From: PVC group bacterium
GTDB taxonomy: Bacteria > Auribacterota > Erginobacteria > Erginobacterales > Erginobacteraceae
Length of the DNA stretch: 24,608 nt
Assembly (NCBI GenBank): GCA_043804695.1
Contig: JAZDIV010000117.1
Span: 1 to 24,608, forward strand
Direction of reading: 5' to 3'
Part shown: piece after piece, positions 6,281-24,608 of the stretch
Layout: each line of letters begins with the position of its first letter
Numbering within the stretch: the first letter of the stretch is position 1
The notes under the pieces: model-generated
The model's input: the letters and a program-made list of their open reading frames with translations, nothing else
Told to the model about the DNA's origin: nothing
Database searches by the model: none
Program-made: the position numbers and the translations under genes

Positions 6281-7882
6281 GTGAAATTCAAACTCCTCCC
6301 CAGGAAACGACATCTGCTTCGCATTGTTGTCCCCGCCTATCCGGCATTTAACATCTATTCCTTTCTTGCCGATACGACGACCTCTCTGGGAGCGGTCTGT
6401 GTTGCCACCTCCGCGCGCGAGGTGGCGGGGTGGGAGGTTGAGGTTATCGACGAAAACAATCTTCGGAGATTCGGTCCCCGGAGCGCCTCCGGCGGCGCGG
6501 ACCATGAGCTGCTTCAGAAGCTCAGACCGGCTGACGTCGTGGGATTTTACGGCGGGCTTACGAGCACGATTCCCCGCGTGTACGACTTAGCGCGCTTCTA
6601 TAAAAGCCGGGGGGTCATAACCATCGCCGGGGGGCAGCACTTTGTGGGAGAGACGATACCGGAAGCGCTTGTTTCGGATATTGATTGTATCGTCCGGGGG
6701 GAGGGGGAAAAGACCGTAAAAGAGCTCCTCCTCGCCTTCAAAGAAGGAAACGAACTTTCCTCGGTGTCCGGTGTCGCGTACCAGGAAAAGGGCGAGGTAA
6801 TCTATACTGCTGAGCGACCTCCCATCCCTGATCTGGACGCTTTGCCGTTGCCTGATTTCTCCCTGCTGAGGTATGCCAAGATCGCGCTCTTTCCCCTGGG
6901 GAGGGTCCGTGGCTGTGGGATGAACTGCGAGTTCTGCGCTGTTAAGGGCAAGCCGCGGTATGCCTCCGCCGAGAAACTGATTGAGCAGGCCAGTAAAATC
7001 GTGGAGACGATGGGCGGCCGGGAGTTCTTCATCGTCGACGATCTATTCGGCCAGGACCGCGATGAGACGTTGCGATTGTGCGCCCTTTTGAAAAATTACC
7101 AGGAGCAGATCGGCCGACGCCTGAGTTTCACCGTGCAAATTCGCCTGGACAAAGCGAAGGACACCGATCTGCTTAAGGCGATGAGAAACGCCGGAATCAA
7201 TGTGGTGGCGATCGGGTTTGAATCGCCGATCTCCGAGGAACTTGAGGCGATGAACAAGAGGCTGCGACCGGAGGAGATGATAGCCTTAACAAAGACGTTC
7301 CATCAATTCGGTTTTTTTGTGCACGGCATGTTTATTTTCGGCTATCCCATGATAGATGGTTCCCAATTTCAAATGTCGGCCAAAGAAAGGGTAAAGCGAT
7401 ACCGAAGGTTCATCAGGGAAACCCGAATAGATACGATCCAGGTCCTGGCGCCGGTTCCCCTGCCCGGCACGGAACTGCGGGAGCGCCTGACGCGCCAGAA
7501 CAGGGTCTACCCCCGCGAAAGCCTGGGCTGGGAGTACTACGATGCCAGTTTCCCCCTCTTCGAGCCGGATCAGCCTCTCACCCCCGAGCAAATGCAACTG
7601 GCGAGTCGAAGAATCATGGGGCGCTTCTACCACCTGCGCTATTTATTCCTCTTCTTCCTCAATGTTCTCTCGTTCCCCTATTTGCTTTTTCACGTTTTTA
7701 ACATTAAATCCGGCTGGAGGAGGTGGTTCCGGAGATGGCGGAATTACTTTCTCCGCTTTGTGGGCTCGAGAGTCCTGAAGAAATGGACTTTCCAATTCCA
7801 CCGGGGAAGATTTTTAAACAAGCTGGGAGAGGCCAAACTGCACATGGGGAAGAAACAGGCGTCCATTTCCCGGCTCCGGTGA
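6281..7882 (+). CDS. Cobalamin-binding domain radical SAM protein
   Basis: DENN, AGGQH, GEGE; RGCGMNCEFC CxxxCxxC; DDLF; IGFES; PLPGT; GTG start after AAGG. Confidence 0.9.
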   Translation: MKFKLLPRKRHLLRIVVPAYPAFNIYSFLADTTTSLGAVCVATSAREVAGWEVEVIDENNLRRFGPRSASGGADHELLQKLRPADVVGFYGGLTSTIPRVYDLARFYKSRGVITIAGGQHFVGETIPEALVSDIDCIVRGEGEKTVKELLLAFKEGNELSSVSGVAYQEKGEVIYTAERPPIPDLDALPLPDFSLLRYAKIALFPLGRVRGCGMNCEFCAVKGKPRYASAEKLIEQASKIVETMGGREFFIVDDLFGQDRDETLRLCALLKNYQEQIGRRLSFTVQIRLDKAKDTDLLKAMRNAGINVVAIGFESPISEELEAMNKRLRPEEMIALTKTFHQFGFFVHGMFIFGYPMIDGSQFQMSAKERVKRYRRFIRETRIDTIQVLAPVPLPGTELRERLTRQNRVYPRESLGWEYYDASFPLFEPDQPLTPEQMQLASRRIMGRFYHLRYLFLFFLNVLSFPYLLFHVFNIKSGWRRWFRRWRNYFLRFVGSRVLKKWTFQFHRGRFLNKLGEAKLHMGKKQASISRLR

Positions 7883-8785: not shown

Positions 8786-10669
8786 TTACCTGAGGAACCT
8801 CCCCATCCCTTCCAGGGCCGGGAGCAGATACCGGTCCTTTTCTCTCCGGATCAGGTCCCTGTCCGTCACCGGCGCATAATCGTTGTCACGGATATCCGAT
8901 TCCAGCATGTTGTACGCCTCGGTGGAGAACCGCATCCGGAGTTCCGGGGTCATCAGGCAGCAGTCGTCCCAGCCCGCCAGGAGCAGGCACCGTTCTGCCG
9001 GCAGTTCGAAGAGGTTCTCTCCCAGAGTGTAGAGCGCGGGGTCGTTGGGGTCGCCCAGGATGCCGAGGATGGTGCCCGGGACATCGAGGTGGCTGCTCCT
9101 CGCGGTCAGAACCCGCGGCCCCTCGAAACCGGGGGCCCGGAAAACCAGGGGGACCCGGACCTGGTAATCATCGTAGGCGGAATTATGGCCGTAGTATCCC
9201 TCCTCCCAGAACTCCTGGCCGTGATCGCCGGTGATCACGATCACCGTGTTCTCCAGATAGCCCCCCTCCTCCAAAGCCGTCAGGATCCGGCCCAGATTAT
9301 AGTCGGCGTAGTGAATGGAGTTCCGGTAACGGTTGAAGATTTCCCCCCGGTTTTCCCGCAGATCGGTCTCCAGGAAGCTGATCTCCCCGCTGCAGGGTTC
9401 GAATTTTCTGAACCCGTCCGGAAAGTGATAGGTGGCGTGGGGAGAGTCGAGGAAGAGAAAACAGAAAAAAGGCTTTCCGGGAGGAACTCCTGCGAGCCAT
9501 TCCAGGAACCTTCGCACCAGGATTTCATCCCGGTCGGCCGAATCCTCCCCGGGGAGCCGGTCTTCGATCTCGATATCCAGATCGGCAAAGGCGGTCCGGT
9601 CGAACTCCGGGAAGGAGAGGGAGGTGCTCGACATCACCTTGAAGAGATATCCGTTGTGAAGCAGCTGCTTGATCAGAACCGGCCCCTGGCGGTGATTGAG
9701 CATCGGCTGCCAGTAGGTTCCATAGAGCCCGTAAAATAAAGCGAATCCGCCGAAGCGGGAGGTGGGACCGCCGGAGTAGTGGCTGAGACCCGTGATCGCC
9801 TTCTCGCTGAAGGCGGTCAGGTTGGGCATGATCTCCGGGTCCAGCATGTCGAAACGGAGGCTCTCCACCAGGATGATCACCACGTTATAGGGCCGGGGGA
9901 GCGGGCCGTAGCGGAAGGCGGGGCCGGGATAGGCCAGCCGGGAGGCGGCGGGGATGATGGGCGCCGCTTCCCCGAAATGCCCTCCGAGCAGCCGCTTGAA
10001 AGTGAACGGGCGGTAGAAGGGCAGGATCTTCTGATAGCGGGTGATCGGGGTGTAGCCGTAATAATCGCTGATCCCGAAAGACAGTTTCTCCACCAGGGAG
10101 AGGAGGATGACCAGACCGGCGGAGATCAGGATCAGCCGGGGACGGGAGACTCTCCAGAGCCGGCCCTTTCGGCGGAGGCGGCGGAAGATGAGGGTGAAAA
10201 TCAGGGACTCCGCCGTGATCAGGACAATCGCGGCCAGCCCGGCCAAAACCCGGTCACGGGCCGAGAAACGCACCGAGTCCCAGTAGCCGGGGGTGGTCAT
10301 GGCGTTGAGAACAATCCCGCTCAGGTGGAACTTGAAATGGGTGTACACCCGGACATCGACAAAAATGAAGACCTGGGCCAGGCTGAAGAGAATAACGGAA
10401 AGAATCCTGATCAGCCACCCCGCCCGCAGCAACAGATAAAGAGCGCTCAAAACCCCGGCCAGGATCAGGGCGATCAGCAGGAAATGAGCGAAGAACGCGG
10501 CGTACCGGAAAACGGCTTCCGCCCGGCTTGATGGGTCAAAGGAGAAATAGGGCCGGCCGGTGATAAAAAACAGGAGGGAGTTCACGGCCCCGAAGAGGAC
10601 GATCGTCCGGTATACAAGCCCCCGGGGGGGAGTCCCCTTGCCGGCCGTAGTTATCATAGTGCCTGCCAT
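8786..10669 (-). CDS. YejM/PbgA-like membrane protein with periplasmic sulfatase-fold domain
   Basis: About five N-terminal TM helices with D..VY..FKFHL; NVVIILVESLR, HYSGG..SRFG.F.LFYGL, DSPH..Y, TGDHGQEF.E...YGH. Start uncertain (10696, 10669 or 10657). Confidence 0.8.
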   Translation of the reverse strand: MAGTMITTAGKGTPPRGLVYRTIVLFGAVNSLLFFITGRPYFSFDPSSRAEAVFRYAAFFAHFLLIALILAGVLSALYLLLRAGWLIRILSVILFSLAQVFIFVDVRVYTHFKFHLSGIVLNAMTTPGYWDSVRFSARDRVLAGLAAIVLITAESLIFTLIFRRLRRKGRLWRVSRPRLILISAGLVILLSLVEKLSFGISDYYGYTPITRYQKILPFYRPFTFKRLLGGHFGEAAPIIPAASRLAYPGPAFRYGPLPRPYNVVIILVESLRFDMLDPEIMPNLTAFSEKAITGLSHYSGGPTSRFGGFALFYGLYGTYWQPMLNHRQGPVLIKQLLHNGYLFKVMSSTSLSFPEFDRTAFADLDIEIEDRLPGEDSADRDEILVRRFLEWLAGVPPGKPFFCFLFLDSPHATYHFPDGFRKFEPCSGEISFLETDLRENRGEIFNRYRNSIHYADYNLGRILTALEEGGYLENTVIVITGDHGQEFWEEGYYGHNSAYDDYQVRVPLVFRAPGFEGPRVLTARSSHLDVPGTILGILGDPNDPALYTLGENLFELPAERCLLLAGWDDCCLMTPELRMRFSTEAYNMLESDIRDNDYAPVTDRDLIRREKDRYLLPALEGMGRFLR

Positions 10670-12324: not shown

Positions 12325-14016
12325 ATGCGAACGAAGAGAGATCGCGACGCCGGGGGGGGGCGCGAATATAATAATAAGTATATTCCTCCCCTTGAGATAC
12401 GGATTTTACCCAGCGGGGATCCCTGGTCGAGGTGGCTGCCGCGGCTGACGCTTGCTTTCGTGGTTTTCGGGCTCATCGTGCGTCTGGTCCGTTATCTGGT
12501 CTGCTACCCGATCTGGCCGGATGAGGCCTTCCTGGCCGCTAACTTCCTGAACGGGGGGTACGGGGATCTTCTGGGAACGCTCCGGTATCACCAGATATCA
12601 CCCCTCCTTTTCCTCTGGGCGGAGATGTTCACGGTCAGACTCCTGGGGTTTTCCGAGTACACCCTGCGGCTCTTTCCCCTCCTCTGCGGCCTGGGCAGCG
12701 TCCTCGTCTTCTGCCGCCTGGGTCGTCGGCTGTTCCGGGGGGAAGCGCTCCTGCTGGCGATGGCCTTTTTTGCGGCAGCGTACTACCCGATCCGGCACGG
12801 GGCCGAAATCAAGCCCTACGCGACGGACCTGGCGGTCTCTGTGCTTCTGCTGGCGCTCTTTGTCGAATGGTGGCGAAAACCCGGAAAACCGCGGCGGCTC
12901 TGGTTTCTGGCCCTGGCGGTCCCCTTCGCGGTCGGGCTCTCATTTCCGGCCGTCTTTGTCGCCGGCGGAATCAGCATTGCCCTGCTGGCGGCGGCCGCGA
13001 AGACACGGAAGACGAAGCTTCCGGCCCCTTTTATCGCGTACAATCTTCTTCTGCTGGGCGCCTTCCTGCTCACCTACCGGGTCTCGACCGGTCCCCAGTA
13101 CCGCGCCGAGGCCTGGCTGAGCGGCCCCCACCCGGAGACCGGGAGCTTCAACCAGGACTCCGCCTGGGTAAGAACCTTCCCCCCTTTCAGGGAGCCCGCC
13201 CGGCTGCCCGGCTGGCTCCTGGCAACCCATACCGGGATGATGTTCGCCTATCCCAACGGCGGCTTTAACGGCGGCTCCACGCTCACCTTCGTCTTCTTCG
13301 CGGCCGGGGCGGGCATTCTCTATTCCCGGAGAAGAAGAATCGTGCTGCTGGCCTTTCTCGCGCCCTTCCTGCTGACGTTCATCGCCGCCGCTCTTCATAA
13401 ATATCCGTATGGCCACAATGCCCGGTTCAACCTCTACCTGGCCCCGATCATCTGTCTCCTGGCCGGGCTGGGAGGAACGAAACTCATCTCCCTGATCCCG
13501 AAAGTAAAAACCCGGACCCTGATCTTCAAACTTCTTATTCTCCTGATGGTTCTGCTGGGGCTGGGGTCCATCGCGCAGGATCTGCTCCACCCCTATAAAA
13601 AAATCGAGGACCGGCGGAGCCGGGAGTTCGCCCGCTGGTTCTGGACCCATCAAGCAGAGGACGCGGAGCTGGTCTGCCTCAAGACCGATCTGGGATTGGA
13701 CTTCTTCCCCCGCCTCTTCGAATGGGGCCATTCGGCGCGCTATCTCTGCAATCAGCGGATCTACTCACCCGCCCACCGGGAGGGCCGGAGAGGTTTTTCT
13801 CCGGACGCGGTCAGCGGGGAGCACCCCCTCCGGTGCGTCGTCTTCAGCGTTCCGGAATGTTATGAGCCCTACGCCCGGCGCGATGAAAACAGGTGGCAGG
13901 AATGGCTGGCTTCGATGCAGGGCCGTTATCGTCTGACCGGCCATGAAAAATTCGAGGTCAACGCCGGCGTGGAGAGCCACCACGAGTGCTACGAGGTCTA
14001 TGAGTTCATCCCTTGA
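12325..14016 (+). CDS. GT-C fold polytopic membrane glycosyltransferase (PMT/ArnT-like)
   Basis: First loop IWPDEA, SPLLF, SEYTLRLFPLLCG, EIKPYATD, many TM helices and a C-terminal soluble domain; exact start uncertain. Confidence 0.8.
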   Translation: MRTKRDRDAGGGREYNNKYIPPLEIRILPSGDPWSRWLPRLTLAFVVFGLIVRLVRYLVCYPIWPDEAFLAANFLNGGYGDLLGTLRYHQISPLLFLWAEMFTVRLLGFSEYTLRLFPLLCGLGSVLVFCRLGRRLFRGEALLLAMAFFAAAYYPIRHGAEIKPYATDLAVSVLLLALFVEWWRKPGKPRRLWFLALAVPFAVGLSFPAVFVAGGISIALLAAAAKTRKTKLPAPFIAYNLLLLGAFLLTYRVSTGPQYRAEAWLSGPHPETGSFNQDSAWVRTFPPFREPARLPGWLLATHTGMMFAYPNGGFNGGSTLTFVFFAAGAGILYSRRRRIVLLAFLAPFLLTFIAAALHKYPYGHNARFNLYLAPIICLLAGLGGTKLISLIPKVKTRTLIFKLLILLMVLLGLGSIAQDLLHPYKKIEDRRSREFARWFWTHQAEDAELVCLKTDLGLDFFPRLFEWGHSARYLCNQRIYSPAHREGRRGFSPDAVSGEHPLRCVVFSVPECYEPYARRDENRWQEWLASMQGRYRLTGHEKFEVNAGVESHHECYEVYEFIP

Positions 14017-14052
14017 TTTTTCCGGGCGAAGCCCGGAAAAATCAAGGGATGA
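14006..14052. terminator. Perfect 22-bp inverted repeat overlapping the GT-C stop codon
   Basis: TCATCCCTTGATTTTTCCGGGC-GAA-GCCCGGAAAAATCAAGGGATGA. Confidence 0.6.
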
Positions 14053-14138
14053 TGATGACCCGATCACCTCGCTATCTGAATAATTCGGGTTAAACAGTTG
14101 CCTGGGAGGATTGTCTTTCCCGCGGGGGAATTTGCCTC

Positions 14139-14168
14139 TTGACCACTGCCGCCGGCAATCTTTACAAT
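14139..14168 (+). promoter_or_regulatory. Candidate sigma70 promoter for pdp and the downstream cluster
   Basis: TTGACC-18 nt-TACAAT; an additional TATAAT at 14180-14185; AGGAGG RBS follows. Confidence 0.5.
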
Positions 14169-14203
14169 ATGCCCTCTTCTATAATAGTCCCCAAGGAGGC
14201 AGC

Positions 14204-15544
14204 ATGACACCGTACGAAATAATCATGAAGAAAAGGGACGGCAAGGCCCTTTCCCCGGAAGAAATTATTTTTTTCATTGATGAATACACAAAAGGAGATA
14301 TCCCCGACTATCAGATGGCGGCCTGGATGATGGCGGTCTTTATCCGGGGGATGTCCCCGGAGGAATCAGCGGCCCTCACCCGGGCGATGCTCCATTCCGG
14401 GGGCACGATCGACCTCTCCTCGATCGGGAAAACTACCGTTGATAAGCACAGCACCGGCGGGGTCGGCGACAAGGTGAGCCTGGTCCTGGCTCCCCTGGTC
14501 GCGTCCCTGGGGATCCCGGTTCCGATGATGAGCGGGCGCGGGCTGGGCCACACCGGAGGGACACTGGACAAGCTGGAGGCGATCCCCGGCTTCCGGATCA
14601 GTCTCTCCGAGGAAGAGTTCATCCGGCAGGTCAAGGACGTCGGCGTCGCCATCATCGGGCAGACCCGCTCCCTGGCCCCGGCCGACAAGAAGATGTACGC
14701 CCTGCGGGACGTCACCGCCACCGTGGACAGCATCCCCCTGATCGCCGGCTCGATCATGAGCAAAAAGCTGGCCGCCGGTCCGGACGCTTTCGTCTTCGAC
14801 GTAAAAACCGGGCGGGGCGCCTTCATGAGCACGCTTTCGATGGCTGAGGAGATGGCCCGCACCCTGGTCGAGATCGCGGTTCTCTCCGGGCGGCAGGCGA
14901 CCGCGCTGATCACCGACATGAACCAGCCGCTCGGCTATTACGCCGGGAACGCCCTGGAGATAGTGGAGACCATCGCCTGCCTGAAGGGAGAAGGTCCCGG
15001 GGACCTGATGACGGTGGTGATGGAGATCGCCGGCATGATGATTATGCTGGGGGGAAAGGCCCCCACCGTCGAAGAGGGGAAACGGCTGGCCCGGGCGGCC
15101 CTCGAGGCAGGGAAAGGGCTGGCCAAGTTCAAGGAGATGGTGGCCGCCCAGGGCGGAGACACGGCCTATGTCGACAACCCCGGCCTCTTTCCTGAGGCCG
15201 CCGGAAAAATCCCGGTCATCGCCGCCCGGGGCGGCTTCGTCCACGCCATCGACACCCTGGAGATGGGGATGATCTGCGTGGCCCTGGGCGCGGGACGGGA
15301 GAAGGCCGATGATGGGATCGACATGTCCGCGGGGATCATCTTCGCCCGCAAAATCGGGGACCGGGTCGAGAAGGGCGACACCCTCCTGACCCTTTTTACC
15401 AACAAAGAGACCGGCCGGAAAGCGATCGCGGACCGCGCCCTCCAGGCGGTGGAGATCAAAGATTCTCCTTGCCAGCCCCCCCCGATAATCTATAAAGTAG
15501 TCGATAAAGATGGTATTAAAAATTTCCCCCGGGGGAATTTTTAA
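14204..15544 (+). CDS. pdp: Pyrimidine-nucleoside (thymidine) phosphorylase
   Basis: KKRDG, PDYQ, DKHSTGGVGDK, SGRGLGHTGGTLDKLE, RDVTATV, SIMSKK, KTGRGAFM, LGAGR; AGGAGG RBS before ATG 14204. Confidence 0.95.
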   Translation: MTPYEIIMKKRDGKALSPEEIIFFIDEYTKGDIPDYQMAAWMMAVFIRGMSPEESAALTRAMLHSGGTIDLSSIGKTTVDKHSTGGVGDKVSLVLAPLVASLGIPVPMMSGRGLGHTGGTLDKLEAIPGFRISLSEEEFIRQVKDVGVAIIGQTRSLAPADKKMYALRDVTATVDSIPLIAGSIMSKKLAAGPDAFVFDVKTGRGAFMSTLSMAEEMARTLVEIAVLSGRQATALITDMNQPLGYYAGNALEIVETIACLKGEGPGDLMTVVMEIAGMMIMLGGKAPTVEEGKRLARAALEAGKGLAKFKEMVAAQGGDTAYVDNPGLFPEAAGKIPVIAARGGFVHAIDTLEMGMICVALGAGREKADDGIDMSAGIIFARKIGDRVEKGDTLLTLFTNKETGRKAIADRALQAVEIKDSPCQPPPIIYKVVDKDGIKNFPRGNF

Positions 15545-15556
15545 AAGGAGTCCGCC

Positions 15557-15700
15557 ATGGGAAGCGCCAAGACCCTTTTTTACCTGCTGGTGGCCGCCGC
15601 TCTCATCGGCGCGGTGGTTCTGATCTTCAACAAGAATTACCGCCGGGACTACAACCTGGTTTCCAACCGGGATTTTTATTCCAGCCTGGCCCGACATTAA
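15557..15700 (+). CDS. 47-aa single-TM small protein (absent from the ORF track)
   Basis: AAGGAG RBS; MGSAKTLFYLLVAAALIGAVVLIFNKNYRRDYNLVSNRDFYSSLARH*; fills the pdp-comEC gap; GC-rich third positions. Confidence 0.7.
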   Translation: MGSAKTLFYLLVAAALIGAVVLIFNKNYRRDYNLVSNRDFYSSLARH

Positions 15701-15730
15701 TAATCCAGGCGAACGATCCGGAGAGTATTC

Positions 15731-18700
15731 ATGCAAACCTACATCGTATCTTTTGCCGCCGTTCTCATTCTCGGCATTTTCATGCGATTGATTCATCCGG
15801 AATCTTCCGAGCTGTCCACCCCGCCCCTGGTCGCCGCCGGCTTTCTGCTCGCCGGCGCGGTTATCTCCTTCATCTACCGTTCCCGGGTCATGGCTTTTCT
15901 CCTTCTCTGTGCCGCCATCTGCATTTTTATGCTGGCTTTGCCGATCACAACCGGGCTGAACATGTACCTGATGGGGATCTTCGCGGCACTCTTCCTGATT
16001 TCAATCGTTTTCGGATTCATCAAGATCAGGGCGCTTCCGTTCTGGATCCTGAGCGCGCTGGTCCTGGGATACGGCCTGACCTGCCTTCACCTTGACCGGA
16101 CCTCACCCTCCCACGTTATCTACTGGGGGGGCGACGATAACAACACCCAGAGCCTGGTCTACGGGATCATCGTCAAGGAACCGGAAGTCAGGCCGGAGAA
16201 GGGGGACACCCGCCTGACCATCGAGTCTTCCATCGTGGCCAAGATCGACAAAAACCCAAAGGGCCTCAGCATCATCGAACAGGCGATCGGCGAGATGAAC
16301 GGCCTCCAGCGGGAGTGGGAGACCGAGGAAGAAGCTCTCCTCACCCTCCTCCAGGTCCGCGACCGCCTGGCCGACGACCCGGAGGCGAACCCGGAAGAAA
16401 TCATCCGGGAGGAGTTCTCCTGCGGCGACTACATTCCCTCGAAGGAGGATATCGAGACCATCCAGATGTCGGCGGAAGAACTGGGCCCCCCCGGACCCGA
16501 AAAGGGATGGATCACCCGGATCGACACCGGCTGGATCCTGGTCATCGTCTACGATAGAGATCTCAACCGGGACAAGATCTATCCCGCCGTCTCCGACTGG
16601 CGGGCATACGGGGACACGGTCAGGATCATCGCCCCCCTCCAGTCCCCTCCCCCGGCGGAAAATCCCGGCGGCTTCGACTACCGCTCCTACCTGGAGTCGG
16701 TCAACACCTTCGCCACAATGCAGATCAAGGGGAAAGAAAACTGGACCACCAAGCAGCTCGATACCATCGAGATCATCAAGCCGTCTACCGGCAACTTCTT
16801 CATCAACTGGTGCATGGGCATCAAATATGAACTTTTGGCCGTCATCCGCCAGACCACCCCCTTCCCGGAGTCGGGTTTCCTCTCCGGCATCTTCGTCGGC
16901 CTGCGGCAGGGCGTCCCCGACAAGATCGTCAAGGATTCCCAGGCGGCCGGTACCGCCCACGTCTTCGCCGTCTCCGGCCTGCACGTGACCATCATCGCCG
17001 GGCTCCTCCTCCTCATCTTCAACCAGACCCCGATCCCGAAATCCGTCTGGGCGCCGATCGCGGTGCTCTTCCTGCTGATCTTCACGGTCATCACCGGGGC
17101 CCGCCCGTCAACGCTGCGGGCCGCCACCATGAACAGCTTCGTGCTGATCTTCTTCACCTATTTCGGCAAGAACATCCAGAAATCCCTGATCATGTCGATC
17201 TGCTTCGCGGCCATCGTCATCATCTGTTTCCTCCCGGCCGGATACGGCGGTCCCCTGATCCTTCCCTCGGCCTCGTTCCTGATGTCTTTCTCCGCCGTCC
17301 TTTTCCTGGGACTCCTCAGCGGGCCGGTTGAGGACTTCTTCAACTTTAAGCTCAATAACCTCCACAGCCTGGTCACCTTCGCGGCGGTAGCCATCCTGGC
17401 CGGGCTGCTTTTCATGAACCTGGGCAACCCCTGGGGGATACTGAAGGCGAAGCTCTTCTGGGGGTTTTTAATCGCCATCCCGGTCTCTTTCCTGATCCAG
17501 CAGGTGATCCCCTTCCGCCCCCGCTTCAGCAAGATCCCGGGAAGGTGGCTGCGGACCTTCATCGCCGCCCAGGTGGCCATCCAGTGCAGCATCGTTCCGC
17601 TCTCGATGGTGATCTTCCACCGGATGTCGCTGGCCGCCCCCTTCGCCAACTTCATCGCCATCCCCCTGATCGGGATCATCCTCCCGCTCGGGATGCTGGC
17701 CACCCTGATCGGATTCATCCCCCTGATCGGCATGCCGCTCGCCCTCCTGATCACGGCCGCCAACTGGCTGGGGATGCACTTCTTTATCTGGATGGATAAC
17801 TTCTTTGCCCGAACCTTCCCCTACCCCCAGGTGCCCAAACCGGGGCCGATCCCGCTGGTTATCTTCTACCTGGTCGTCTTTTTCTTCATCTACCGGGAAA
17901 AGATCATCCTCAGCCTGAAGATCGCCTTCATCCGGGTGAAGAACTCCCTGCCTGACTCCGCCTGCCGGATCAGGGTTTACGGCGCCCTGGCCGCCCTTCT
18001 GATCGCGATCGCGGCCACGGCGACGGGGTTCATCTCCTCCCGCACTCCCGAGCTCAAGGTGATCTTCCTGTCGATGGGATGGAAGGACGGGATGTGCGCC
18101 CTGATCGAGGCTCCCAACGGAGACACCATTCTCATCGACGGGGGGGCGGAAGGTAGAGATTTCTACAAGAAAAGGTATTCGTACTGGAACCAGGGGCAGC
18201 GGACCCTGGAGGAGGTGCTTCTCTCCGAGAAGGTCGTCGCTTTCGACGCGGTCGTCAATTCCAGCCCTGACGCCCGTTTGCTGGGAGGCCTGAATTACAT
18301 CGTCGGATCGGATGATTATTATATCAAGCGGCTCTACGTCTCCCTCCCTCCCTCCGTCTTCGGGCCGAAGGACATCAACCTGAACCGGTTCGCCATCGCC
18401 CTCGCCTCCGGCTATCAGGGCGATGCCGGGCATTATTACCGGCTGCTGCTTCTGAACCAGTTCAAGCCGGAGGATGCGCTGCATTTCATGACCTTCTTCC
18501 GGAAGATCCCCGATGACGAGATAACCGCCGCCCTCCAGACCCTTCCCCGGGAGCCGAACCCGAAATACGACCCCATGACGATTACCGGAGAGGCGATCCA
18601 GATTCTGAAGGAGAAGGAGGCGGAGGGGCACGAGCAGCTGATCGAGTCCATCATCTCCACCGAGGGGTGGCTCCATCCGGACGAAGATTTCACCCGGGAG

Positions 18701-19573
18701 CAGGCGGAAGTCCTGGCGAAGAAGTGGAAACTTTCGGTTCTTACCCCGGACGAGTATCACGGCTTCGTCTCCAACCTCCCCCAGCCGATCCAGTGGTTCG
18801 TCTACCAGCAGGGCGGGGTCCTCGCGGACATGGATGAGCTGGCCGCCTACCGGATGGAACTCTACGATCTCTTTATCGAGGCCATCGGGTTCAAGAGCGA
18901 AAACCCCGACGACCGGCTGTACCGGGACGACGAGATGTTCCTGCAGTATCACCGGCTGCTCTTCTCGGCCAAGGTGCAGGACATCCCGGTCAGCCCGGCC
19001 AACCAGGGGATCGTCATCATCGAGCCGGAGGAGATCCGGACCGTCGAGACCGCGGAAGGCGAGAAGAAGTCCCTGGTCCTGGAGGCCGCCGTCCTCAACC
19101 CGCCCGTGGATCGGGTTCCCGGAAAGTACGTCAATGAGGTCAACTCGGTAGTCGTTTACCTCCGGTACGGCGATGTCTCCTTCATCTTCCCCAGCCTCCT
19201 TGACAATGAAGGGGCCAACACCCTGGCCCAAAACGTCAAGGACGGCGTCGCGGCCACTATCTACCAGGCCCCGCAGTTCGGGAAGGGCAGCAAATACTTC
19301 GATCCGACCATCCTTCTCCAGCTGGTCAAGCCGGAGGTGGCCGTCTTCCAGTATCCGGGGGGGAGTTTCGGCCGGCCGAGCACGAAGTTTCTGGAGGCAT
19401 GGGCCTTCTGCCAGGCGCAGGGGATCAAGTCCTACAACACGAAAGAGATGGGAGCGATCACCGTCATCACCAACGGGGAGACCTATGACGTCATCACCGC
19501 CCTCGAACAGGCCGGGGAAGAGAGCGGCGGCGAGACCCCGGAAAAATCGATGGAGGTGGGCGGCGGGATGTAA
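15731..19573 (+). CDS. comEC: ComEC/Rec2 DNA uptake channel, enlarged, with degenerate MBL domain
   Basis: OB/DUF4131 motif YGD...NPGGFDYRSYL; competence domain G.AHVFAVSGLHV, PSTLRA, SFLMSF, ANFIAIP; MBL-like C-terminus LIDGG...NSVVVYLRYGDVSF...GAITV. Confidence 0.9.
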   Translation: MQTYIVSFAAVLILGIFMRLIHPESSELSTPPLVAAGFLLAGAVISFIYRSRVMAFLLLCAAICIFMLALPITTGLNMYLMGIFAALFLISIVFGFIKIRALPFWILSALVLGYGLTCLHLDRTSPSHVIYWGGDDNNTQSLVYGIIVKEPEVRPEKGDTRLTIESSIVAKIDKNPKGLSIIEQAIGEMNGLQREWETEEEALLTLLQVRDRLADDPEANPEEIIREEFSCGDYIPSKEDIETIQMSAEELGPPGPEKGWITRIDTGWILVIVYDRDLNRDKIYPAVSDWRAYGDTVRIIAPLQSPPPAENPGGFDYRSYLESVNTFATMQIKGKENWTTKQLDTIEIIKPSTGNFFINWCMGIKYELLAVIRQTTPFPESGFLSGIFVGLRQGVPDKIVKDSQAAGTAHVFAVSGLHVTIIAGLLLLIFNQTPIPKSVWAPIAVLFLLIFTVITGARPSTLRAATMNSFVLIFFTYFGKNIQKSLIMSICFAAIVIICFLPAGYGGPLILPSASFLMSFSAVLFLGLLSGPVEDFFNFKLNNLHSLVTFAAVAILAGLLFMNLGNPWGILKAKLFWGFLIAIPVSFLIQQVIPFRPRFSKIPGRWLRTFIAAQVAIQCSIVPLSMVIFHRMSLAAPFANFIAIPLIGIILPLGMLATLIGFIPLIGMPLALLITAANWLGMHFFIWMDNFFARTFPYPQVPKPGPIPLVIFYLVVFFFIYREKIILSLKIAFIRVKNSLPDSACRIRVYGALAALLIAIAATATGFISSRTPELKVIFLSMGWKDGMCALIEAPNGDTILIDGGAEGRDFYKKRYSYWNQGQRTLEEVLLSEKVVAFDAVVNSSPDARLLGGLNYIVGSDDYYIKRLYVSLPPSVFGPKDINLNRFAIALASGYQGDAGHYYRLLLLNQFKPEDALHFMTFFRKIPDDEITAALQTLPREPNPKYDPMTITGEAIQILKEKEAEGHEQLIESIISTEGWLHPDEDFTREQAEVLAKKWKLSVLTPDEYHGFVSNLPQPIQWFVYQQGGVLADMDELAAYRMELYDLFIEAIGFKSENPDDRLYRDDEMFLQYHRLLFSAKVQDIPVSPANQGIVIIEPEEIRTVETAEGEKKSLVLEAAVLNPPVDRVPGKYVNEVNSVVVYLRYGDVSFIFPSLLDNEGANTLAQNVKDGVAATIYQAPQFGKGSKYFDPTILLQLVKPEVAVFQYPGGSFGRPSTKFLEAWAFCQAQGIKSYNTKEMGAITVITNGETYDVITALEQAGEESGGETPEKSMEVGGGM

Positions 19574-19647
19574 TTTTATTTTATTTTCCTAAAGGAAAAT
19601 AAAATAAAAACAGCAAAATGCCGTCTAAATTGAGAAAAAGAGCTTGC

Positions 19648-19932
19648 ATGATGATGCGGGGTTTAATTCTACCGGTATTGATCATCGCGGCGGCCGGTGG
19701 CCTGGCCGGGGAAATCACGGCCCAGGAAAGGGTCAACGTCAACACCGCCGGCAACCGGGAGCTGCAGAGCCTGCCGGGCATCGGCCCGAAGATCGCCGAT
19801 AAATTCATCGCCGAGCGGCAGGTCAACGGCCCCTACCGCTCGCTGGAGGACCTGCAGCGGCGGGTCATGGGGGTTAACGGGGGCATGATCGAGTCCCTGA
19901 AGAAGCAGGGGCTCTACGCCGGAAACCCGTAA
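19648..19932 (+). CDS. comEA: ComEA-like helix-hairpin-helix DNA-binding protein 1
   Basis: Signal peptide; VNVNTA...LQSLPGIGPKIA..I..R..NGPY.SLEDL; second HhH is V.GVNG; start is one of three ATGs at 19648-19654. Confidence 0.85.
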   Translation: MMMRGLILPVLIIAAAGGLAGEITAQERVNVNTAGNRELQSLPGIGPKIADKFIAERQVNGPYRSLEDLQRRVMGVNGGMIESLKKQGLYAGNP

Positions 19933-20025
19933 AGCAGGCCGGCGATACATATTTATTCAATAACGGGCGTCACAACGACGCCCTGAGTAAGCCCTGACGG
20001 GCAAAACAACAGGAGGAAAAGCAGC

Positions 20026-20343
20026 ATGAGAACAATCATTGCATGTAGTATGATTGCTCTTCTGGCACTGGCGATTTCCGCTCCTCTGCTGGCCGAGGTC
20101 GATGTCAACACCGCGACCGCGTCGCAATTAACGGCCATCAAGGGGATCGGACCCAAGACCGCCGAGAAGATCATCCAGTATCGGGATGAGAACGGACCCT
20201 TCAGCTCCATCAATGACGTGGTCCGCGTCAAGGGAGTCGGGCCGAAGACCCTGGAAAAGATGATCGACTCCGGGTTGGTCTGCAACCCGCCGGCGGGGGC
20301 GGCGGTACCGGCGGCACCGGCTGCACCGGCTACGGAGGAATAA
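20026..20343 (+). CDS. comEA: ComEA-like helix-hairpin-helix DNA-binding protein 2
   Basis: AGGAGG RBS; signal peptide; VDVNTA...IKGIGPKTAEKIIQYR..NGPF.S..D..RVKGVGPKTLEK; Ala/Pro tail. Confidence 0.9.
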   Translation: MRTIIACSMIALLALAISAPLLAEVDVNTATASQLTAIKGIGPKTAEKIIQYRDENGPFSSINDVVRVKGVGPKTLEKMIDSGLVCNPPAGAAVPAAPAAPATEE

Positions 20344-20355
20344 ACAGCGATCGGT

Positions 20356-20397
20356 AATTTCGGGAGCGCGCCGGCGTGCCGGCGCGCTCCTGAAATT
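20356..20397. terminator. Long GC-rich hairpin after comEA-2 (terminator or mRNA stabiliser)
   Basis: AATTTCGGGAGCGCGCCGGC-GT-GCCGGCGCGCTCCTGAAATT. Confidence 0.55.
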
Positions 20398-20426
20398 GCC
20401 GGCATCCTTAAAGGCGGCACCACACC

Positions 20427-21344
20427 GTGAAAACCAAAAGAGCGGACCGTCTGGCCCGTCTGCTGTCGCTTATTTTCGCCGTGCTGGTTGTTTCCCCCGC
20501 GCCCGCTCTGGCCCTGTCAGGAGACAACATCCTCAAGGTGACTTTCCTGAACATCCGTCAGGGTGACTCCCAGGTTATCCAGACCCCGGACGGGAAAGTC
20601 ATCGTCATCGACGGGGGGCAGTCGGCCACCCGTTATTCGCCCTTCGACGCCGGGGCGGAGGTCGTCATCCCCTACCTGGAGAGCCAGGGGGTGAAAAAGA
20701 TCGACGTCGTGGTCGCCACCCACCCCGATTACGATCACACGGGGGGCCTGGTGGCGGTGTTGAACAGCACGTTCCCGATCGGGATGGTGCTCGACTGCGG
20801 CATCGTCCACACGACCGGTACTTATACAAGCTACCTCGAGGCGATCGAGAAGAAGAAGATACCCTTCCGGATCGCCGATGCCGGAGAAATCCTGGACTGG
20901 GGGAAATTCGTCCGGGCCCAGGTGCTCGCCCCCGAGGGGCCGCCCGAAAAACGGGGGCATCTCAACCTGAACAACAACTCGATCGTCATCCGGATGGAAT
21001 ACGGGGACGTCTCCTTCCTCTTCACCGGCGACTGCGAGCACGAGGAAGAAGATATTATTCTCTCCTCTGGAGCCCGGCTTAAAAGCACGATTCTGAAAGC
21101 CGGACATCACGGCTCGAAGACAGCCAGCGGCCAGCTTTTCTACTACCTGTGCGACCCGGAGGTTGTCACCATCTCCGCCGGGAAGAGAAATAAGTTCGAC
21201 CATCCTCACTGGGAATCGATAAAACTGTACCGGGAGACCGGGGCCGAAATTTACCGGACCGATTATCAGGGAAATATCACGGTGCTCACCGATGGAAAGA
21301 CCTATGAGGTGACCACCGGACATGAAGAAGTGGCGGAAGACTAA
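20427..21344 (+). CDS. Exported ComEC/Rec2-type MBL-fold metallo-hydrolase (putative nuclease)
   Basis: Signal peptide ending ALA-L; VTFLNIRQGDS, IDGG, THPDYDHTGG, NNNS, FTGD, GHHGS, HPH, YRTD. Confidence 0.88.
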   Translation: MKTKRADRLARLLSLIFAVLVVSPAPALALSGDNILKVTFLNIRQGDSQVIQTPDGKVIVIDGGQSATRYSPFDAGAEVVIPYLESQGVKKIDVVVATHPDYDHTGGLVAVLNSTFPIGMVLDCGIVHTTGTYTSYLEAIEKKKIPFRIADAGEILDWGKFVRAQVLAPEGPPEKRGHLNLNNNSIVIRMEYGDVSFLFTGDCEHEEEDIILSSGARLKSTILKAGHHGSKTASGQLFYYLCDPEVVTISAGKRNKFDHPHWESIKLYRETGAEIYRTDYQGNITVLTDGKTYEVTTGHEEVAED

Positions 21345-21413
21345 CCTTATTTTTTCTCCGAAAAAATAATCGGAGTAGTAATACCGGCTGCCCCCGGCCG
21401 CAGTGGTTCTTTT

Positions 21414-21452
21414 GACTTTTAGCACTTCAAACTTTAGACACTTCAGAACATT
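21414..21452. repeat. Degenerate ACTTTAGGC-type tandem repeat
   Basis: GCACTTCAAACTTTAGACACTTC (21422-21444) is 21/23 identical to the reverse complement of 23016-23038. Confidence 0.6.
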
Positions 21453-21714
21453 GCCCGAACGAAGTGAGCTAACTTGCTGTTTCGGAATGTCAATAATCGG
21501 AAAGATCAGATTATGGAAATCCCAAAACAGGCGAAAAAGCAACCAGGAAAAAATATTTTGTTTGTTACGCCAAGGGCTTACCGTTGTTTATTGAACAGTT
21601 GCATTCAAACTAATTCTTGGGCAATTATCAGTCTGTTACAAGTTTAAAGGTGTAATTCACTCCAATTCTTTTAAATTAGCGCCGGAGGCGCTAATTTATA
21701 ACGGGGGAGAAAAC

Positions 21715-23010
21715 ATGGATCCTCATATCCTGTTTATTGTCGGAGGCGCGGCCTTCATCCTCTTTTTACTGATCGCCCTCGACCTGACCCGCCTGCTCCG
21801 GAAAAAGGCCGGGGACTGGCAGGAGCTGGCGACGGCGGAGGAAAACGAGGCTGCGCCGCTGATGGAGCCGGGAAATGCCGGGGAGAAAACACCCGGGGAA
21901 ACCGGGGCCGCCCCTCCCGCCGGGGAGCGGGCGCCGGCGACCGGGGAGCTGACCAAGCTGAATATCCCCCGGGGAGCTGAGATCTTCGATCATATCATCA
22001 CCCATAACGACTGGGACGGGATCATCTCGGGGGCGCTCCTCAAGCATTTCTCTCCGTTGGCCAAGGTCGAGGTGACAACCGCCCGGGGCATCCGCTGGGC
22101 GCTCCGATCCCTGGCCAAGAACCCCGACAAGCCGCAGCGTCTCTTCATCACGGACGTGGGGATCACCAGCGAGAACCTGGCCGACATCGAGGATGCCCTG
22201 ATCGATCTCCAGAAGGCCGGTGTTAAAATCTACTGGTACGATCACCACCCCTGGTCCAACCTGAGCATCGACACCGCGGAACGGGATTGCGCCGACCTGG
22301 TCGTCAGCCCGCAATTCCATAACGCGGCCGACATCGTCTTCAAAAGGATCACCGGCGAGGACGATCCCTGGGCCGCTCAATTAATGCGGCTGATCAACAA
22401 TAAGCTCAAGCCGGAAGAAGAAGCATGGGGCAAGAACTGGCGGCTGCTCATTTTGGCCACCCAGAGCGCGCCGTCTCCGGGGGACATCATCGACCTCATC
22501 GTCAAGATCGCCGGCGACCGGCCGCTGTCGGTCGCCGACAAGTTCAAGATCAAGCGAATGGCGGACGAGGAGGTCATTTACCAAAAGTTCGCCGAGGGGA
22601 AGCACCGGGAGGAGATCACCCAGTCGGGGATGAAGTTCCTGGTAGTGGATCTCCGGGTCTTCCGGGAAGAGTATGACGCGGCCGGAAACCTGAAGCGAAA
22701 ATTCGCCCGGCACAACCCCCCCGCTTCCATCGGGTATGACATCGTCAAATATCACAACCCCGATTTCTACATCATGGTCCTGAAGAACGACCGGCTCAGC
22801 ATCCGGGGGGGGCAGGAGAGGAAGTTCAAGGTCGGAGAACTGGCGGGCCTGAAATCAATCAAGGGGAAACCGTGCCGGATCGCCGGCCACAGCTACGCGG
22901 CCGGGGTGTATCTCACCGTCAGCCTGATCAGCAAGCTGAAGTACATTTACAACTGGGCCCTTCCCCGGGAGGTTGAGGACTTCATCGACGAGGTCAAGAC
23001 CCGACTGTAG
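21715..23010 (+). CDS. Membrane-anchored DHH/DHHA1-family phosphoesterase
   Basis: N-terminal TM helix and acidic Pro/Ala/Gly linker; motifs THNDWDG, FITDVG, WYDHH and C-terminal AGHSYAAG; GGGGAG RBS. Confidence 0.8.
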   Translation: MDPHILFIVGGAAFILFLLIALDLTRLLRKKAGDWQELATAEENEAAPLMEPGNAGEKTPGETGAAPPAGERAPATGELTKLNIPRGAEIFDHIITHNDWDGIISGALLKHFSPLAKVEVTTARGIRWALRSLAKNPDKPQRLFITDVGITSENLADIEDALIDLQKAGVKIYWYDHHPWSNLSIDTAERDCADLVVSPQFHNAADIVFKRITGEDDPWAAQLMRLINNKLKPEEEAWGKNWRLLILATQSAPSPGDIIDLIVKIAGDRPLSVADKFKIKRMADEEVIYQKFAEGKHREEITQSGMKFLVVDLRVFREEYDAAGNLKRKFARHNPPASIGYDIVKYHNPDFYIMVLKNDRLSIRGGQERKFKVGELAGLKSIKGKPCRIAGHSYAAGVYLTVSLISKLKYIYNWALPREVEDFIDEVKTRL

Positions 23011-23011
23011 G

Positions 23012-23148
23012 GAAAGAAGTGCCTAAAGTTTAAAGTGCCTAAAGTGCCTAAAGTTAATTTCGCCTCGCACCTGTTATAGCGAGAGTCGCCGGGTGAGGTG
23101 GCAACTTTAGGCACTTTAGGCACTTTAGTACACTTTAGGCACTTTCTT
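23012..23148. repeat. Inverted pair of 9-mer tandem arrays (AAAGTGCCT)n ... (AGGCACTTT)n
   Basis: 25-bp perfect inverted match 23031-23055 / 23103-23127 around a 47-nt spacer. Confidence 0.85.
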
Positions 23149-23163
23149 TTAGGAGCCATATTT

Positions 23164-24342
23164 ATGAAACGAGCAATTATCATCGTACTGGACAGCGTGG
23201 GCATCGGCGAGATGCCGGACGCCGGTGACTTCGGAGACGCCGGGGCGAATACCCTGGGACATATCGCAAAGAGCGTCGACGGCTTCGCGCTGCCGAACAT
23301 GGAGAAGATGGGGATCGGCAACATCGCCCCCCTGCGGGGGATCCCCCCCTCCCCTGCCCCGTCCGGCGCTTTCGGCAAACTGGGCGAACTGTCACAGGGA
23401 AAAGACACCACCGTCGGCCACTGGGAAATTGCCGGGCTGGTCTCGGCCCGGCCCTTCCCGGTCTACCCGGACGGCTTTCCCCCGGACCTGGTCGAGGCGT
23501 TCGAGAAGATGATCGGCCGGAAGACGCTCGGGAACTACGCCGCCTCCGGGACCGAGATCATCAGGGATCTGGGCGAAGAGCACGTAAGAACCGGCCAGCC
23601 GATCATCTACACGTCCGCCGACAGCGTCTTTCAGATCGCCGCCCACGAGGAGGTCATCCCCCTCGATCAGCTCTACCGGATCTGCCGGCAGACCCGTGAA
23701 CTCCTCCAGGGGGAACACGGGGTCGGCCGGGTCATCGCCCGGCCGTTCGTGGGGAAACCAGGAAGCTTCGAACGGACGGCCCACCGCCATGACTTCTCCC
23801 TGGTTCCTCCCGACGACACCCTTCTGGACCTGATCGTCAAAAACGGCGGGAAGACATACGGAGTGGGTAAAATCTACGACATCTTTGCCGGGAAGGGGGT
23901 GAGCGAGACGGTGAGCATCGAGGACAACCGGGACGGAATGGAGAAAACCCTCTCGGCCATGAAGAAGAAGGGATTCAGTCTGATTTTCACCAACCTGGTC
24001 GATTTTGACATGAAGTACGGACACCGCCGCGATGCCGGGGCCTACGCGCTGGCTCTGGAGGATTTTGACCGCCGGATCCCGGAGATCATCAAGGCCTTGC
24101 GCCCGGAGGACATCCTCTTTATCACCGCCGATCACGGCTGCGACCCCACGTTTGCCGCCCATACCGACCACACCCGGGAGTACATCCCCCTGCTGGTGAA
24201 CGGGCCGGCGGTCCGGCCGGGGGTGAACCTGGGCACCCGGAGCAGTTTCGCCGACATCGCCCGGACGATCGCCGAGTATCTGGGACTGCCGGTGATGAAA
24301 TCCGGGAAGAGCTTCCTTCAAGATATTACGGCGGGGAGCTGA
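23164..24342 (+). CDS. deoB: Phosphopentomutase
   Basis: [86 protein letters not shown] before ATG 23164. Confidence 0.96.
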
Positions 24343-24398
24343 TTTACTGCTTCGAAATTTTACGCCAGAGGTTCCGCCTCTGGCGGACAATAAATGTC

Positions 24399-24608
24399 GT
24401 AGCGGCGACCTTCAGGTCGCCACTAAATGGCAGCCTGAAGAGGCTGTCCGGTAAACCCTGAAAGGTCATTGCGAGCCCCGAAGGGGCGAAGCAATCTATT
24501 TTTTCATTCATAACCACCTCTTATCCAAAATGATGAGATTGCTTCGTCGCTGCGCTCCTCGCAATGACCTCTAAAATGCCTAAAATCTGAATTATCGGAC
24601 AGCCTCTT
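24399..24608. mobile_element. Nested miniature elements: REP-like GTAG palindrome, TIR-bounded element, and GTCATTGCGAG element
   Basis: GTAGCGGCGACCTTCAGGTCGCC from 24399; TIR 24438-24454 / 24592-24608 (16/17); inner 13-bp TIR 24463-24475 / 24558-24570. Confidence 0.7.

Follow-up and report, generated by a model that had tools for sequence, protein, structure and literature searches.

A conserved gene cluster that joins a divergent ComEC paralog to nucleoside catabolism in two candidate phyla and probably serves the import and degradation of DNA

Whether bacteria take up DNA for its genes or as food is an old question, and it has stayed unsettled because one machinery could serve both purposes in the model organisms. 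The second purpose is the subject of the 'DNA for food' hypothesis. Palchevskiy and Finkel are said to have reported in 2006 that Escherichia coli uses DNA as a nutrient by means of homologues of the com genes, and we know of no dedicated ComEC paralog or com-deo linkage that has been described in this species. In our study, we analysed a cluster of eight genes, running from pdp to deoB and including a second type of ComEC, in DNA of a PVC group bacterium from the phylum Auribacterota (order Erginobacterales; GenBank assembly GCA_043804695.1, contig JAZDIV010000117.1, forward strand). The whole stretch that was analysed, called the window here, is 24,608 nucleotides long and is the entire contig C117 of a source genome of 2.97 Mb, which is divided into 155 contigs and is 88% complete. 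The cluster probably encodes a system that imports and degrades DNA and feeds deoxynucleoside catabolism and base salvage, apart from the transformation machinery. This shares with E. coli the idea of a ComEC route that would serve nutrition; E. coli has one set of com homologues, whereas here the linkage is built into the structure of the operon in two phyla.

The closest described relatives of the uptake genes are those of transformation, for example the comE operon of Bacillus subtilis. The same helix-hairpin-helix (HhH) binders (ComEA) and the same order of the OB, Competence and metallo-beta-lactamase (MBL) domains (ComEC) were found in the cluster. The comE operon further contains a gene for the dCMP deaminase ComEB, which is a precedent for a gene of nucleotide metabolism inside a com operon. 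Unlike the com sets, the cluster encodes a separate, putatively exported nuclease, and cytoplasmic-type nucleases and nucleoside catabolism replace DprA, ComF and RecA, while a canonical ComEC coexists with it. The catabolic genes resemble those of the deoCABD operon of E. coli and of the drm-pupG and dra-nupC-pdp operons of B. subtilis. The genes pdp, deoB (drm) and punA (pupG) are shared with these operons; deoB and punA were adjacent in 11/11 loci of the order studied here, and deoC and pdp were adjacent in a second lineage described below. The entry point of the classical deo operons is the nucleoside transporter NupC, whereas a DNA channel and nucleases were found in that position here.

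Passages of two papers predict that the SPU microcompartment loci process deoxyribose-5-phosphate from DNA degradation (PMC4207490, PMC8217296), and passages of a lake study predict microcompartments that degrade DNA for Ca. Auribacterota (PMC9324843). Shared with the SPU loci are a DeoC whose N-terminus is extended by ~80 amino acids and, in one locus of the second lineage (L057), a BMC-H shell gene beside deoC-pdp. Unlike the SPU loci, the window contained no shell genes, and BMC-H was adjacent in one of the four second-lineage loci examined. The main texts of PMC4207490, PMC8217296, PMC9324843 and PMC11585597 (supplementary files excluded) contained no mention of ComEC, competence or DNA uptake. 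Since the main texts of the SPU papers are silent on DNA uptake, the entry route is what the cluster would add to the predicted DNA-degrading microcompartments. No such cluster was described in the literature on ComEC with DNA nutrition, nucleoside catabolism or microcompartments, as represented by titles, abstracts and passages of PMC7761423 and 10.1101/528695.

The original prediction had named eight co-oriented genes, from pdp to deoB, and all eight were found on the forward strand, spanning nucleotides 14204-24342, by scans of open reading frames, Pfam and NCBIfam. They are given below with the continuation of the cluster on a second contig.

14204-15544, forward strand: pdp, pyrimidine-nucleoside/thymidine phosphorylase (PF00591, PF02885, PF07831; TIGR02644 565 bits, cut-off 409)
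15557-15700, forward strand: 47-amino-acid single-pass membrane protein with one transmembrane (TM) helix
15731-19573, forward strand: ComEC paralog, 1280 amino acids (PF03772 116.7 bits, PF13567 51.9 bits)
19618-19932, forward strand: comEA1, ComEA-like HhH protein (PF12836 51.6 bits; signal-peptide-like N-terminus by inspection)
20026-20343, forward strand: comEA2, ComEA-like HhH protein (PF12836 81.2 bits; TIGR00426 70.2 bits; signal-peptide-like N-terminus by inspection)
20427-21344, forward strand: putatively exported MBL of the ComEC type, 305 amino acids (PF00753 58.3 bits; signal-peptide-like N-terminus)
21715-23010, forward strand: DHH/DHHA1 protein, probably membrane-tethered, 431 amino acids (N-terminal TM helix; PF01368 20.7 bits)
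23164-24342, forward strand: deoB, phosphopentomutase (TIGR01696 491 bits; NF003766 542 bits)
24484-24607, forward strand: contig-end overlap, 100% identical to bases 1-124 of contig C8
C8:184-1005: punA-type purine nucleoside phosphorylase (PF01048), starting 324 nucleotides past the deoB stop
C8:1179-2468: DEDDh/RNase_T exonuclease, 429 amino acids, downstream of punA

Since the last 124 nucleotides of the window are the start of contig C8, the cluster is truncated by the assembly and is longer than the window. Beyond the original prediction, the ComEC subfamily, the split nuclease, the putative tethered DHH nuclease and the continuation into punA and the exonuclease are new.

The ComEC paralog was found to contain N-terminal TM helices followed by an OB/DUF4131 domain, the Competence channel domain and a C-terminal pseudo-MBL domain. 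The PF03772 score was above its cut-off of 23 bits and was split in two stretches, and the PF13567 score of the OB fold was above its cut-off of 31.6 bits and was interrupted by an insertion of ~110 amino acids. The score for the TIGR00361 equivalog was missed (97.6 versus 190.05 bits). The following parts were located in the gene.

16892-17893, forward strand: Competence channel domain, in two stretches of 86.5 and 48.1 bits
18053-19498, forward strand: pseudo-MBL domain, with the beta-lactamase-like fold of ComEC retained
18380-18976, forward strand: all-helical, order-specific insertion of ~200 amino acids within the pseudo-MBL domain (helices at model residues 144-342)

The model of the pseudo-MBL domain had a predicted local distance difference test (pLDDT) value of 81, and its top match in the PDB was 9ic4 (E 2.9e-15, target-normalised TM-score (TMt) 0.80). 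According to passages of PMC12455585, the C-terminal MBL of the solved ComEC is a Mn-dependent nuclease for which H598, D600, D602, H603, D700 and H725 are needed. One Asp is left of the corresponding metal ligands (H-x-D-x-D-H, D and the H of HHGS) in the pseudo-MBL domain, which contains NSSPDAR at the ligand motif and QFGKGS at the position of HHGS. A scan for the H-x-[HD]-x-D-H pattern found it in 0/17 ComECs of the operon type and in 11/12 canonical ComECs; the sole canonical ComEC without the motif was the source genome's own copy on contig C73. In a maximum-likelihood tree of 29 ComECs, obtained by a quick search with midpoint rooting and with long branches flagged, the 17 operon copies from both phyla were split from the 12 canonical copies by a branch with an SH-like approximate likelihood ratio test (SH-aLRT) support of 100. 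The operon ComEC is thus a distinct subfamily. Unlike the ComEC of transformation, it has lost the nuclease ligands in 17/17 copies, carries large insertions and falls below TIGR00361. Passages of a ComEC survey report that 89% of the proteomes had a single protein with the Competence domain and that Lactamase_B was gained and lost repeatedly (PMC6299819); a word search of this paper found no mention of paralogs or nutrients.

The stand-alone MBL aligned to positions 441-663 of TIGR00361, which is the ComEC model, and matched the solved ComEC chains with E 1.6e-50 (30bt_A) and 2.4e-50 (9ic4_A). Its ligand motifs THPDYDH, GD and HHGS were intact and invariant across 11 orthologues. The stand-alone MBL is, judged by these sequences, the nuclease that is missing from the ComEC paralog. 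In both phyla, the nuclease in cis was lost and a separate exported or anchored MBL was present; this combination therefore defines the system. A ComEC nuclease that is a separate protein would also bear on the structural models of strand separation at the mouth of the channel. Complex prediction for the pseudo-MBL (33-518) with the mature MBL (33-305) gave a score of 0.00 (mark 0.32), which carries no weight either way on docking. Both ComEA-like proteins consist of a leader and the HhH region and nothing more. The HhH DNA-binding region of ComEA (PF12836) was recognised in both copies; comEA2 was above and comEA1 (37.9 bits) below the TIGR00426 cut-off of 53.1, and both missed the score of the full-length ComEA model TIGR01259 (52.8 and 75.2 bits versus a cut-off of 152.35).

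The DHH protein missed the gathering score of PF01368 (20.7 versus 28.1 bits), and no PDB chain was matched by it in a sequence search. The H97, D99, D101, D147, D176, H177, H178, G391, H392, A395, A396 and G397 residues were invariant in 17 orthologues. The H-x-D-x-D, D and DHH motifs and the GH..AAG motif of DHHA1, which we take to be motifs I-III and the GGGH-like motif, were complete in 17/17. In the AlphaFold model (pLDDT 81.5), residues 3-31 formed a TM helix and amino acids 35-76 a disordered acidic linker, and Foldseek matched the model with probability 1.0 to NrnA, PAP phosphatase, RecJ, PggH and GdpP at 10-16% identity. The two-domain fold and the DxD, D, DHH and GH..AAG motifs are common to NrnA, RecJ, PggH, GdpP and the cluster protein; what sets the cluster protein apart, besides the low identity, is a membrane anchor at its N-terminus and ~45 amino acids of disordered acidic linker. 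From its modelled fold and its motifs, the protein is a true DHH/DHHA1 nuclease-type enzyme (NrnA/RecJ-like) with predicted nuclease activity. A cluster of Arg/Lys was present after the TM helix, with no charge before it, in the DHH protein and in its distant homologues. By the positive-inside rule these flanking charges place the catalytic part towards the cytoplasm, and the protein is probably tethered on the cytoplasmic face.

Among 5.8 billion clustered proteins, 46 were close homologues of the DHH protein (at least 52% identity), one of them labelled Candidatus Auribacterota. An exhaustive search of 1.84 billion representatives with its profile gave 289 matches at E <= 0.001, 16 of them at E <= 1e-30, which makes this a small family. 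One distant member (P0058, 1175 amino acids) was found to be a UvrD/REP helicase (48-744) fused to a DHH-family domain (817-1173), and this fusion is consistent with a DNA substrate for the family. The variable acidic linker contained a P-L-M sequence (amino acids 48-50; window 21856-21864), of which L49 and M50 were conserved in 17/17 orthologues and P48 in no fewer than 90%; the sequence possibly acts as a short motif for docking.

The 47-amino-acid TM protein had no family match in Pfam, NCBIfam or PADLOC. It is kept in both lineages, with the TM helix followed by the motif N..YR...N..SN..[FY]Y, and is a candidate accessory subunit of the system.

The ComEC paralog was searched in 40 relatives, comprising 13 genomes of the same order and 27 genomes from other families of the phylum. 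Of the 13 same-order genomes, 11 had a full-length paralog (1243-1299 amino acids, 47-85% identity), and the remaining two contained fragments of it on cut contigs. With the same query, the paralog was not found in the 27 genomes of the other families, which yielded only ordinary ComECs of ~800-860 amino acids. The proteins of the window were then mapped on 12 loci from 11 relatives, which represent four families of the order, with the following counts.

pdp, small TM gene, ComEC paralog, at least one comEA and the DHH gene: 12/12 loci, in the same order and on the same strand
MBL gene: 11/12 loci
deoB: 11/12 loci; the contig of the twelfth ends first
punA after deoB: 11/11 loci
DEDDh exonuclease after punA: 6/12 loci, all six in the family of the source genome

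The flanks of the cluster varied, with a sulfatase in one genus and glycosyltransferases in another. The original prediction had named the absence of this linkage in relatives as the finding that would count against it, and the linkage was kept in all 12 loci.

A profile built from distant DHH homologues led to six loci in species-representative genomes, two from the candidate division CSSED10-310 and four from genomes labelled as unclassified 'bacterium'. Five of the six had the same gene order, with pdp, a small TM gene, ComEC (933-947 amino acids), tandem ComEA, a membrane-anchored MBL and DHH, and the sixth locus was cut. The identity of the cluster proteins across the phyla was 25-50%. 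The deoC gene was immediately 5' of pdp in all four second-lineage loci scanned with Pfam, and a PD-(D/E)XK (Cas4/AddB-like) nuclease of 551-579 amino acids was found between MBL and DHH in three of the four. The genes downstream were cdd (cytidine deaminase) or hpt (hypoxanthine phosphoribosyltransferase) with adenine deaminase, and the stop and start codons of several cluster genes overlapped. All five second-lineage genomes also contained a canonical ComEC of 783-800 amino acids (open frames of 795-815 amino acids). The BMC-H shell gene of L057 was directly upstream of deoC-pdp. Shell genes upstream of the cluster were looked for in three further second-lineage genomes and were not found; in these (L084-L086) the same-strand neighbour upstream of deoC-pdp encoded a BNR/Sortilin-like beta-propeller protein of 726-759 amino acids. 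With a second ComEC subfamily inside a catabolic operon in two candidate phyla and a canonical ComEC alongside it, evolution appears to have separated gene uptake and DNA feeding in these bacteria.

The earlier proposal that the cluster chains DNA capture, depolymerisation and deoxynucleoside catabolism, with uptake as nutrition, gains support from the conserved linkage, the ComEC paralog with a dead nuclease, the separate MBL and the DHH/DHHA1 nuclease-type protein. The two ComEA-like proteins, through their HhH domains, would hold double-stranded DNA in the periplasm, and the exported MBL, whose ligand motifs are intact, would supply strand degradation in trans. The ComEC paralog and the 47-amino-acid membrane protein would then conduct single-stranded DNA through the Competence channel. 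On the cytoplasmic side, the tethered DHH/DHHA1 enzyme, which has the fold and motifs of its family, would cut the incoming strand to mononucleotides, possibly helped by the DEDDh exonuclease in the family of the source genome or by the PD-(D/E)XK nuclease in the other phylum. The step from mononucleotides to deoxynucleosides, which is the gap in the chain, might be carried out by an unlinked nucleotidase, and candidates for SurE and 5'-nucleotidase were found elsewhere in the genome. By the biochemistry known for deo operons, enzymes of the Pdp, PunA, DeoB and DeoC families would finally yield bases, which would be salvaged, and glyceraldehyde-3-phosphate and acetaldehyde. The set of the deo-type pathway is complete in the source genome, with pdp and deoB in the window, punA on C8 and two deoC genes elsewhere. 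Imported DNA would thus be consumed and not recombined. A more specific proposal, which we consider less likely than not, is a DNA-eating class of ComEC that lost its own nuclease; a periplasmic MBL and a cytoplasmic DHH enzyme would flank the membrane, hydrolysis by DHH would pull the DNA in as a burnt-bridge ratchet with no ComFA, ComFC or DprA partner, the 47-amino-acid protein and P-L-M would provide docking, and the products would pass into phosphorolysis and, in some of the lineages, on into a microcompartment that processes deoxyribose.

The nearest rival to a nutritional role is an ordinary transformation operon, in which the nucleoside enzymes merely recycle the degraded, non-transforming strand in the manner of ComEB. 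A passage of 10.1101/2020.12.30.424838 speculates that nucleotide-scavenging proteins are under competence control in B. subtilis comE/ComEB. Moreover, dprA (on C47) and a comF-like gene (on C71, 98 bits, below the equivalog cut-off) were both present when they were sought elsewhere in the source genome, and since the other ComEC of this genome is degenerate in its nuclease domain, the paralog could be the working channel. However, the cytoplasmic-type nucleases of the cluster (DHH in 12/12 and in the six further loci, DEDDh in 6/12, PD-(D/E)XK in 3/4) would destroy the single-stranded DNA as it enters, and an intact canonical ComEC stands beside the operon copy in 5/5 second-lineage genomes. 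The full catabolic set of deoC, pdp, deoB, punA and cdd also exceeds what simple recycling would need. The original prediction had further stated that dprA, comF and recA are absent from the window: dprA and comF had no match on contig C117, and no such Pfam domain was present in the other main open reading frames, a scan which for recA stands in place of a dedicated search. None of these genes appeared in the loci of the relatives, as searched with the cluster, punA, exonuclease and Memo queries and a partial Pfam scan. We therefore regard the transformation operon as unlikely. Adjacency by chance, with the salvage and com genes as independent neighbours, is far less likely still. It could draw on the repeat-bearing spacers of 370 and 153 bp in the source genome and on a weak terminator-like site downstream of the MBL gene, but the gene order persists, while the flanks change, in members of the order whose ComEC identity is as low as 47% and across phyla at a protein identity of 25-50%. 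The MBL-DHH spacer was 10-39 bp in 5/11 of the relatives' loci, so the 370 bp found here represent a local insertion of repeats; the repeats in the spacers belong to a genome-wide element, and the codons of neighbouring genes overlap in the second lineage.

A different target or purpose, such as RNA or oligonucleotides, turnover of the cell's own or biofilm DNA, or defence against foreign DNA, was considered somewhat less probable than transformation. It is established that Pdp, PunA and DeoB also use ribonucleosides, and the titles of the PDB matches indicate a preference of NrnA-type DHH enzymes for short oligonucleotides of RNA or DNA. Against this, deoC, which is specific for deoxyribose-5-phosphate, was directly upstream of pdp in 4/4 second-lineage loci, and the HhH domains of ComEA and the ComEC-type nuclease indicate DNA. 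For defence, the MBL gave partial PADLOC matches (LmuA-type 65.7 bits, Avs1a 44.3 bits), but these were limited to the generic N-terminal MBL part, no other cluster protein fell in a defence family, and no conserved sensor or effector genes were present in the flanks. PADLOC yielded only generic partial matches of the MBL, DEDDh and Cas4 folds, and the defence reading was set aside.

Several findings weigh against the import-and-degrade system as we propose it. The gene for DeoB (TIGR01696) was found in one of the five second-lineage genomes, so that the chain may be incomplete in that lineage, and the linkage rests in effect on two independent lineages. The MBL gene was missing from the cluster of one relative (G009), the cluster has no gene for the conversion of dNMP to deoxynucleoside, and the periplasmic and cytoplasmic locations were judged by eye from the N-termini. 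A spacer of 85-529 bp preceded deoB in the window and in all of the relatives' loci. Since this spacer was never shorter than 85 bp, deoB-punA may have its own promoter or form a separate transcript, that is, may be its own transcription unit. The source genome's canonical-length ComEC (795 amino acids, C73:4717-7104; Competence domain 205 bits) has degenerate nuclease motifs (LTRAGIDH, RRGS) and a very long branch in the ComEC tree; because this copy lacks the nuclease motif, the split between transformation and feeding is not clean here.

The rate at which the genes of purine synthesis were found differed between the order and the other families of the phylum, as given below (the order includes the source genome).

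purM over the cut-off: order 0/14; other families of the phylum 21/27
purD: order 1/14; other families of the phylum 24/27
purH: order 14/14; other families 27/27; 38/41 in all over the cut-off

These counts suggest an early block in purine synthesis within the operon-bearing order, whose members are kin and not independent cases. The gaps in purM and purD would give a motive for salvage, and the cluster would explain the purine supply of the members of the order that lack these genes. Other counts stand against such a motive: purH was found in all 41 genomes searched, family f14 lacked purM and purD and also lacked the operon, and the second lineage had purM (4/5 genomes over the cut-off). 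Purine auxotrophy was therefore rejected as a general driver, since it fits the order and neither the second lineage nor family f14. The cluster is in any case a concrete and testable system for the question of DNA as food.

The control elements and repeats around the genes of the cluster were as follows.

14006-14052, forward strand: perfect hairpin with 22-nucleotide arms, at the end of the upstream glycosyltransferase-like gene
14139-14168, forward strand: sigma-70-like promoter match TTGACC-18-TACAAT (10/12), the best of the region, 36 nucleotides before the pdp start; a consensus match only
19574-19609, forward strand: perfect AT-rich hairpin with 17-nucleotide arms, between the ComEC paralog and comEA1
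20352-20401, forward strand: GC-rich hairpin with 24-nucleotide arms (92%), between comEA2 and the MBL gene
21415-21444, no strand assigned: copy of a repetitive extragenic palindrome (REP)-like palindromic repeat, inside the 370-bp MBL-DHH spacer
23016-23138, no strand assigned: REP-like element in which tandem GTGCCTAAAGT units form a 25-nucleotide perfect inverted repeat, inside the 153-bp DHH-deoB spacer

The hairpin at 14006-14052 marks the 5' boundary of the pdp-deoB unit, and an AAGGAGG ribosome-binding site precedes the ATG of pdp. The hairpins at 19574-19609 and 20352-20401 may act in processing or attenuation and thereby adjust the proportions of the gene products. The two gaps that had been noted on either side of the DHH gene, of 370 and 153 bp, were exact, and both carried repeats. 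The 11-mer unit of the REP-like element was present in 145 copies on 43 contigs, compared with ~1.4 expected by chance per 3 Mb, and the element occupied several intergenic spacers; being genome-wide, the repeats are not specific to this cluster. An Rfam scan of 13900-24608 at E <= 1 showed no riboswitch or known regulatory RNA and gave only sub-threshold microRNA and small-RNA matches on the palindromic repeats.

Elsewhere in the source genome, a PLD-family (PLDc_2) protein was encoded after the ComEC gene on C73 (7353-8426), which is a possible substitute nuclease, and three secretin genes were found. The two deoC genes above the TIGR00126 cut-off were on contigs C134 and C109. The deoC of C134, whose 76-amino-acid N-terminal extension is a possible encapsulation peptide, was 2.5 kb from three EutN/CcmL genes (deoC 9327-10220 and EutN/CcmL region 12741-13764 on C134, in L053 coordinates), and BMC-H shell genes were present on contig C122. 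The deoC, EutN and BMC-H genes together suggest a deoxyribose-processing microcompartment. The best Pfam DeoC match of the genome, on C48 (L015:8085-10086), was rejected as a deoxyribose-phosphate aldolase because it was found in an aromatic amino-acid cluster. Its neighbours encode a type II 3-dehydroquinate synthase, a prephenate dehydratase and a prephenate dehydrogenase, and it is probably the aldolase of an alternative (archaeal-type) entry to the shikimate pathway.

In 10 of the 12 relatives' loci, and at C8:3120-3995 in the source genome, a Memo-like gene (PF01875) was present close to where the cluster ends downstream. It was often located beside a gene for a B12-binding radical SAM protein. 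The window itself contained two B12-binding radical SAM genes, at 4660-6057 on the reverse strand and at 6281-7882 on the forward strand.

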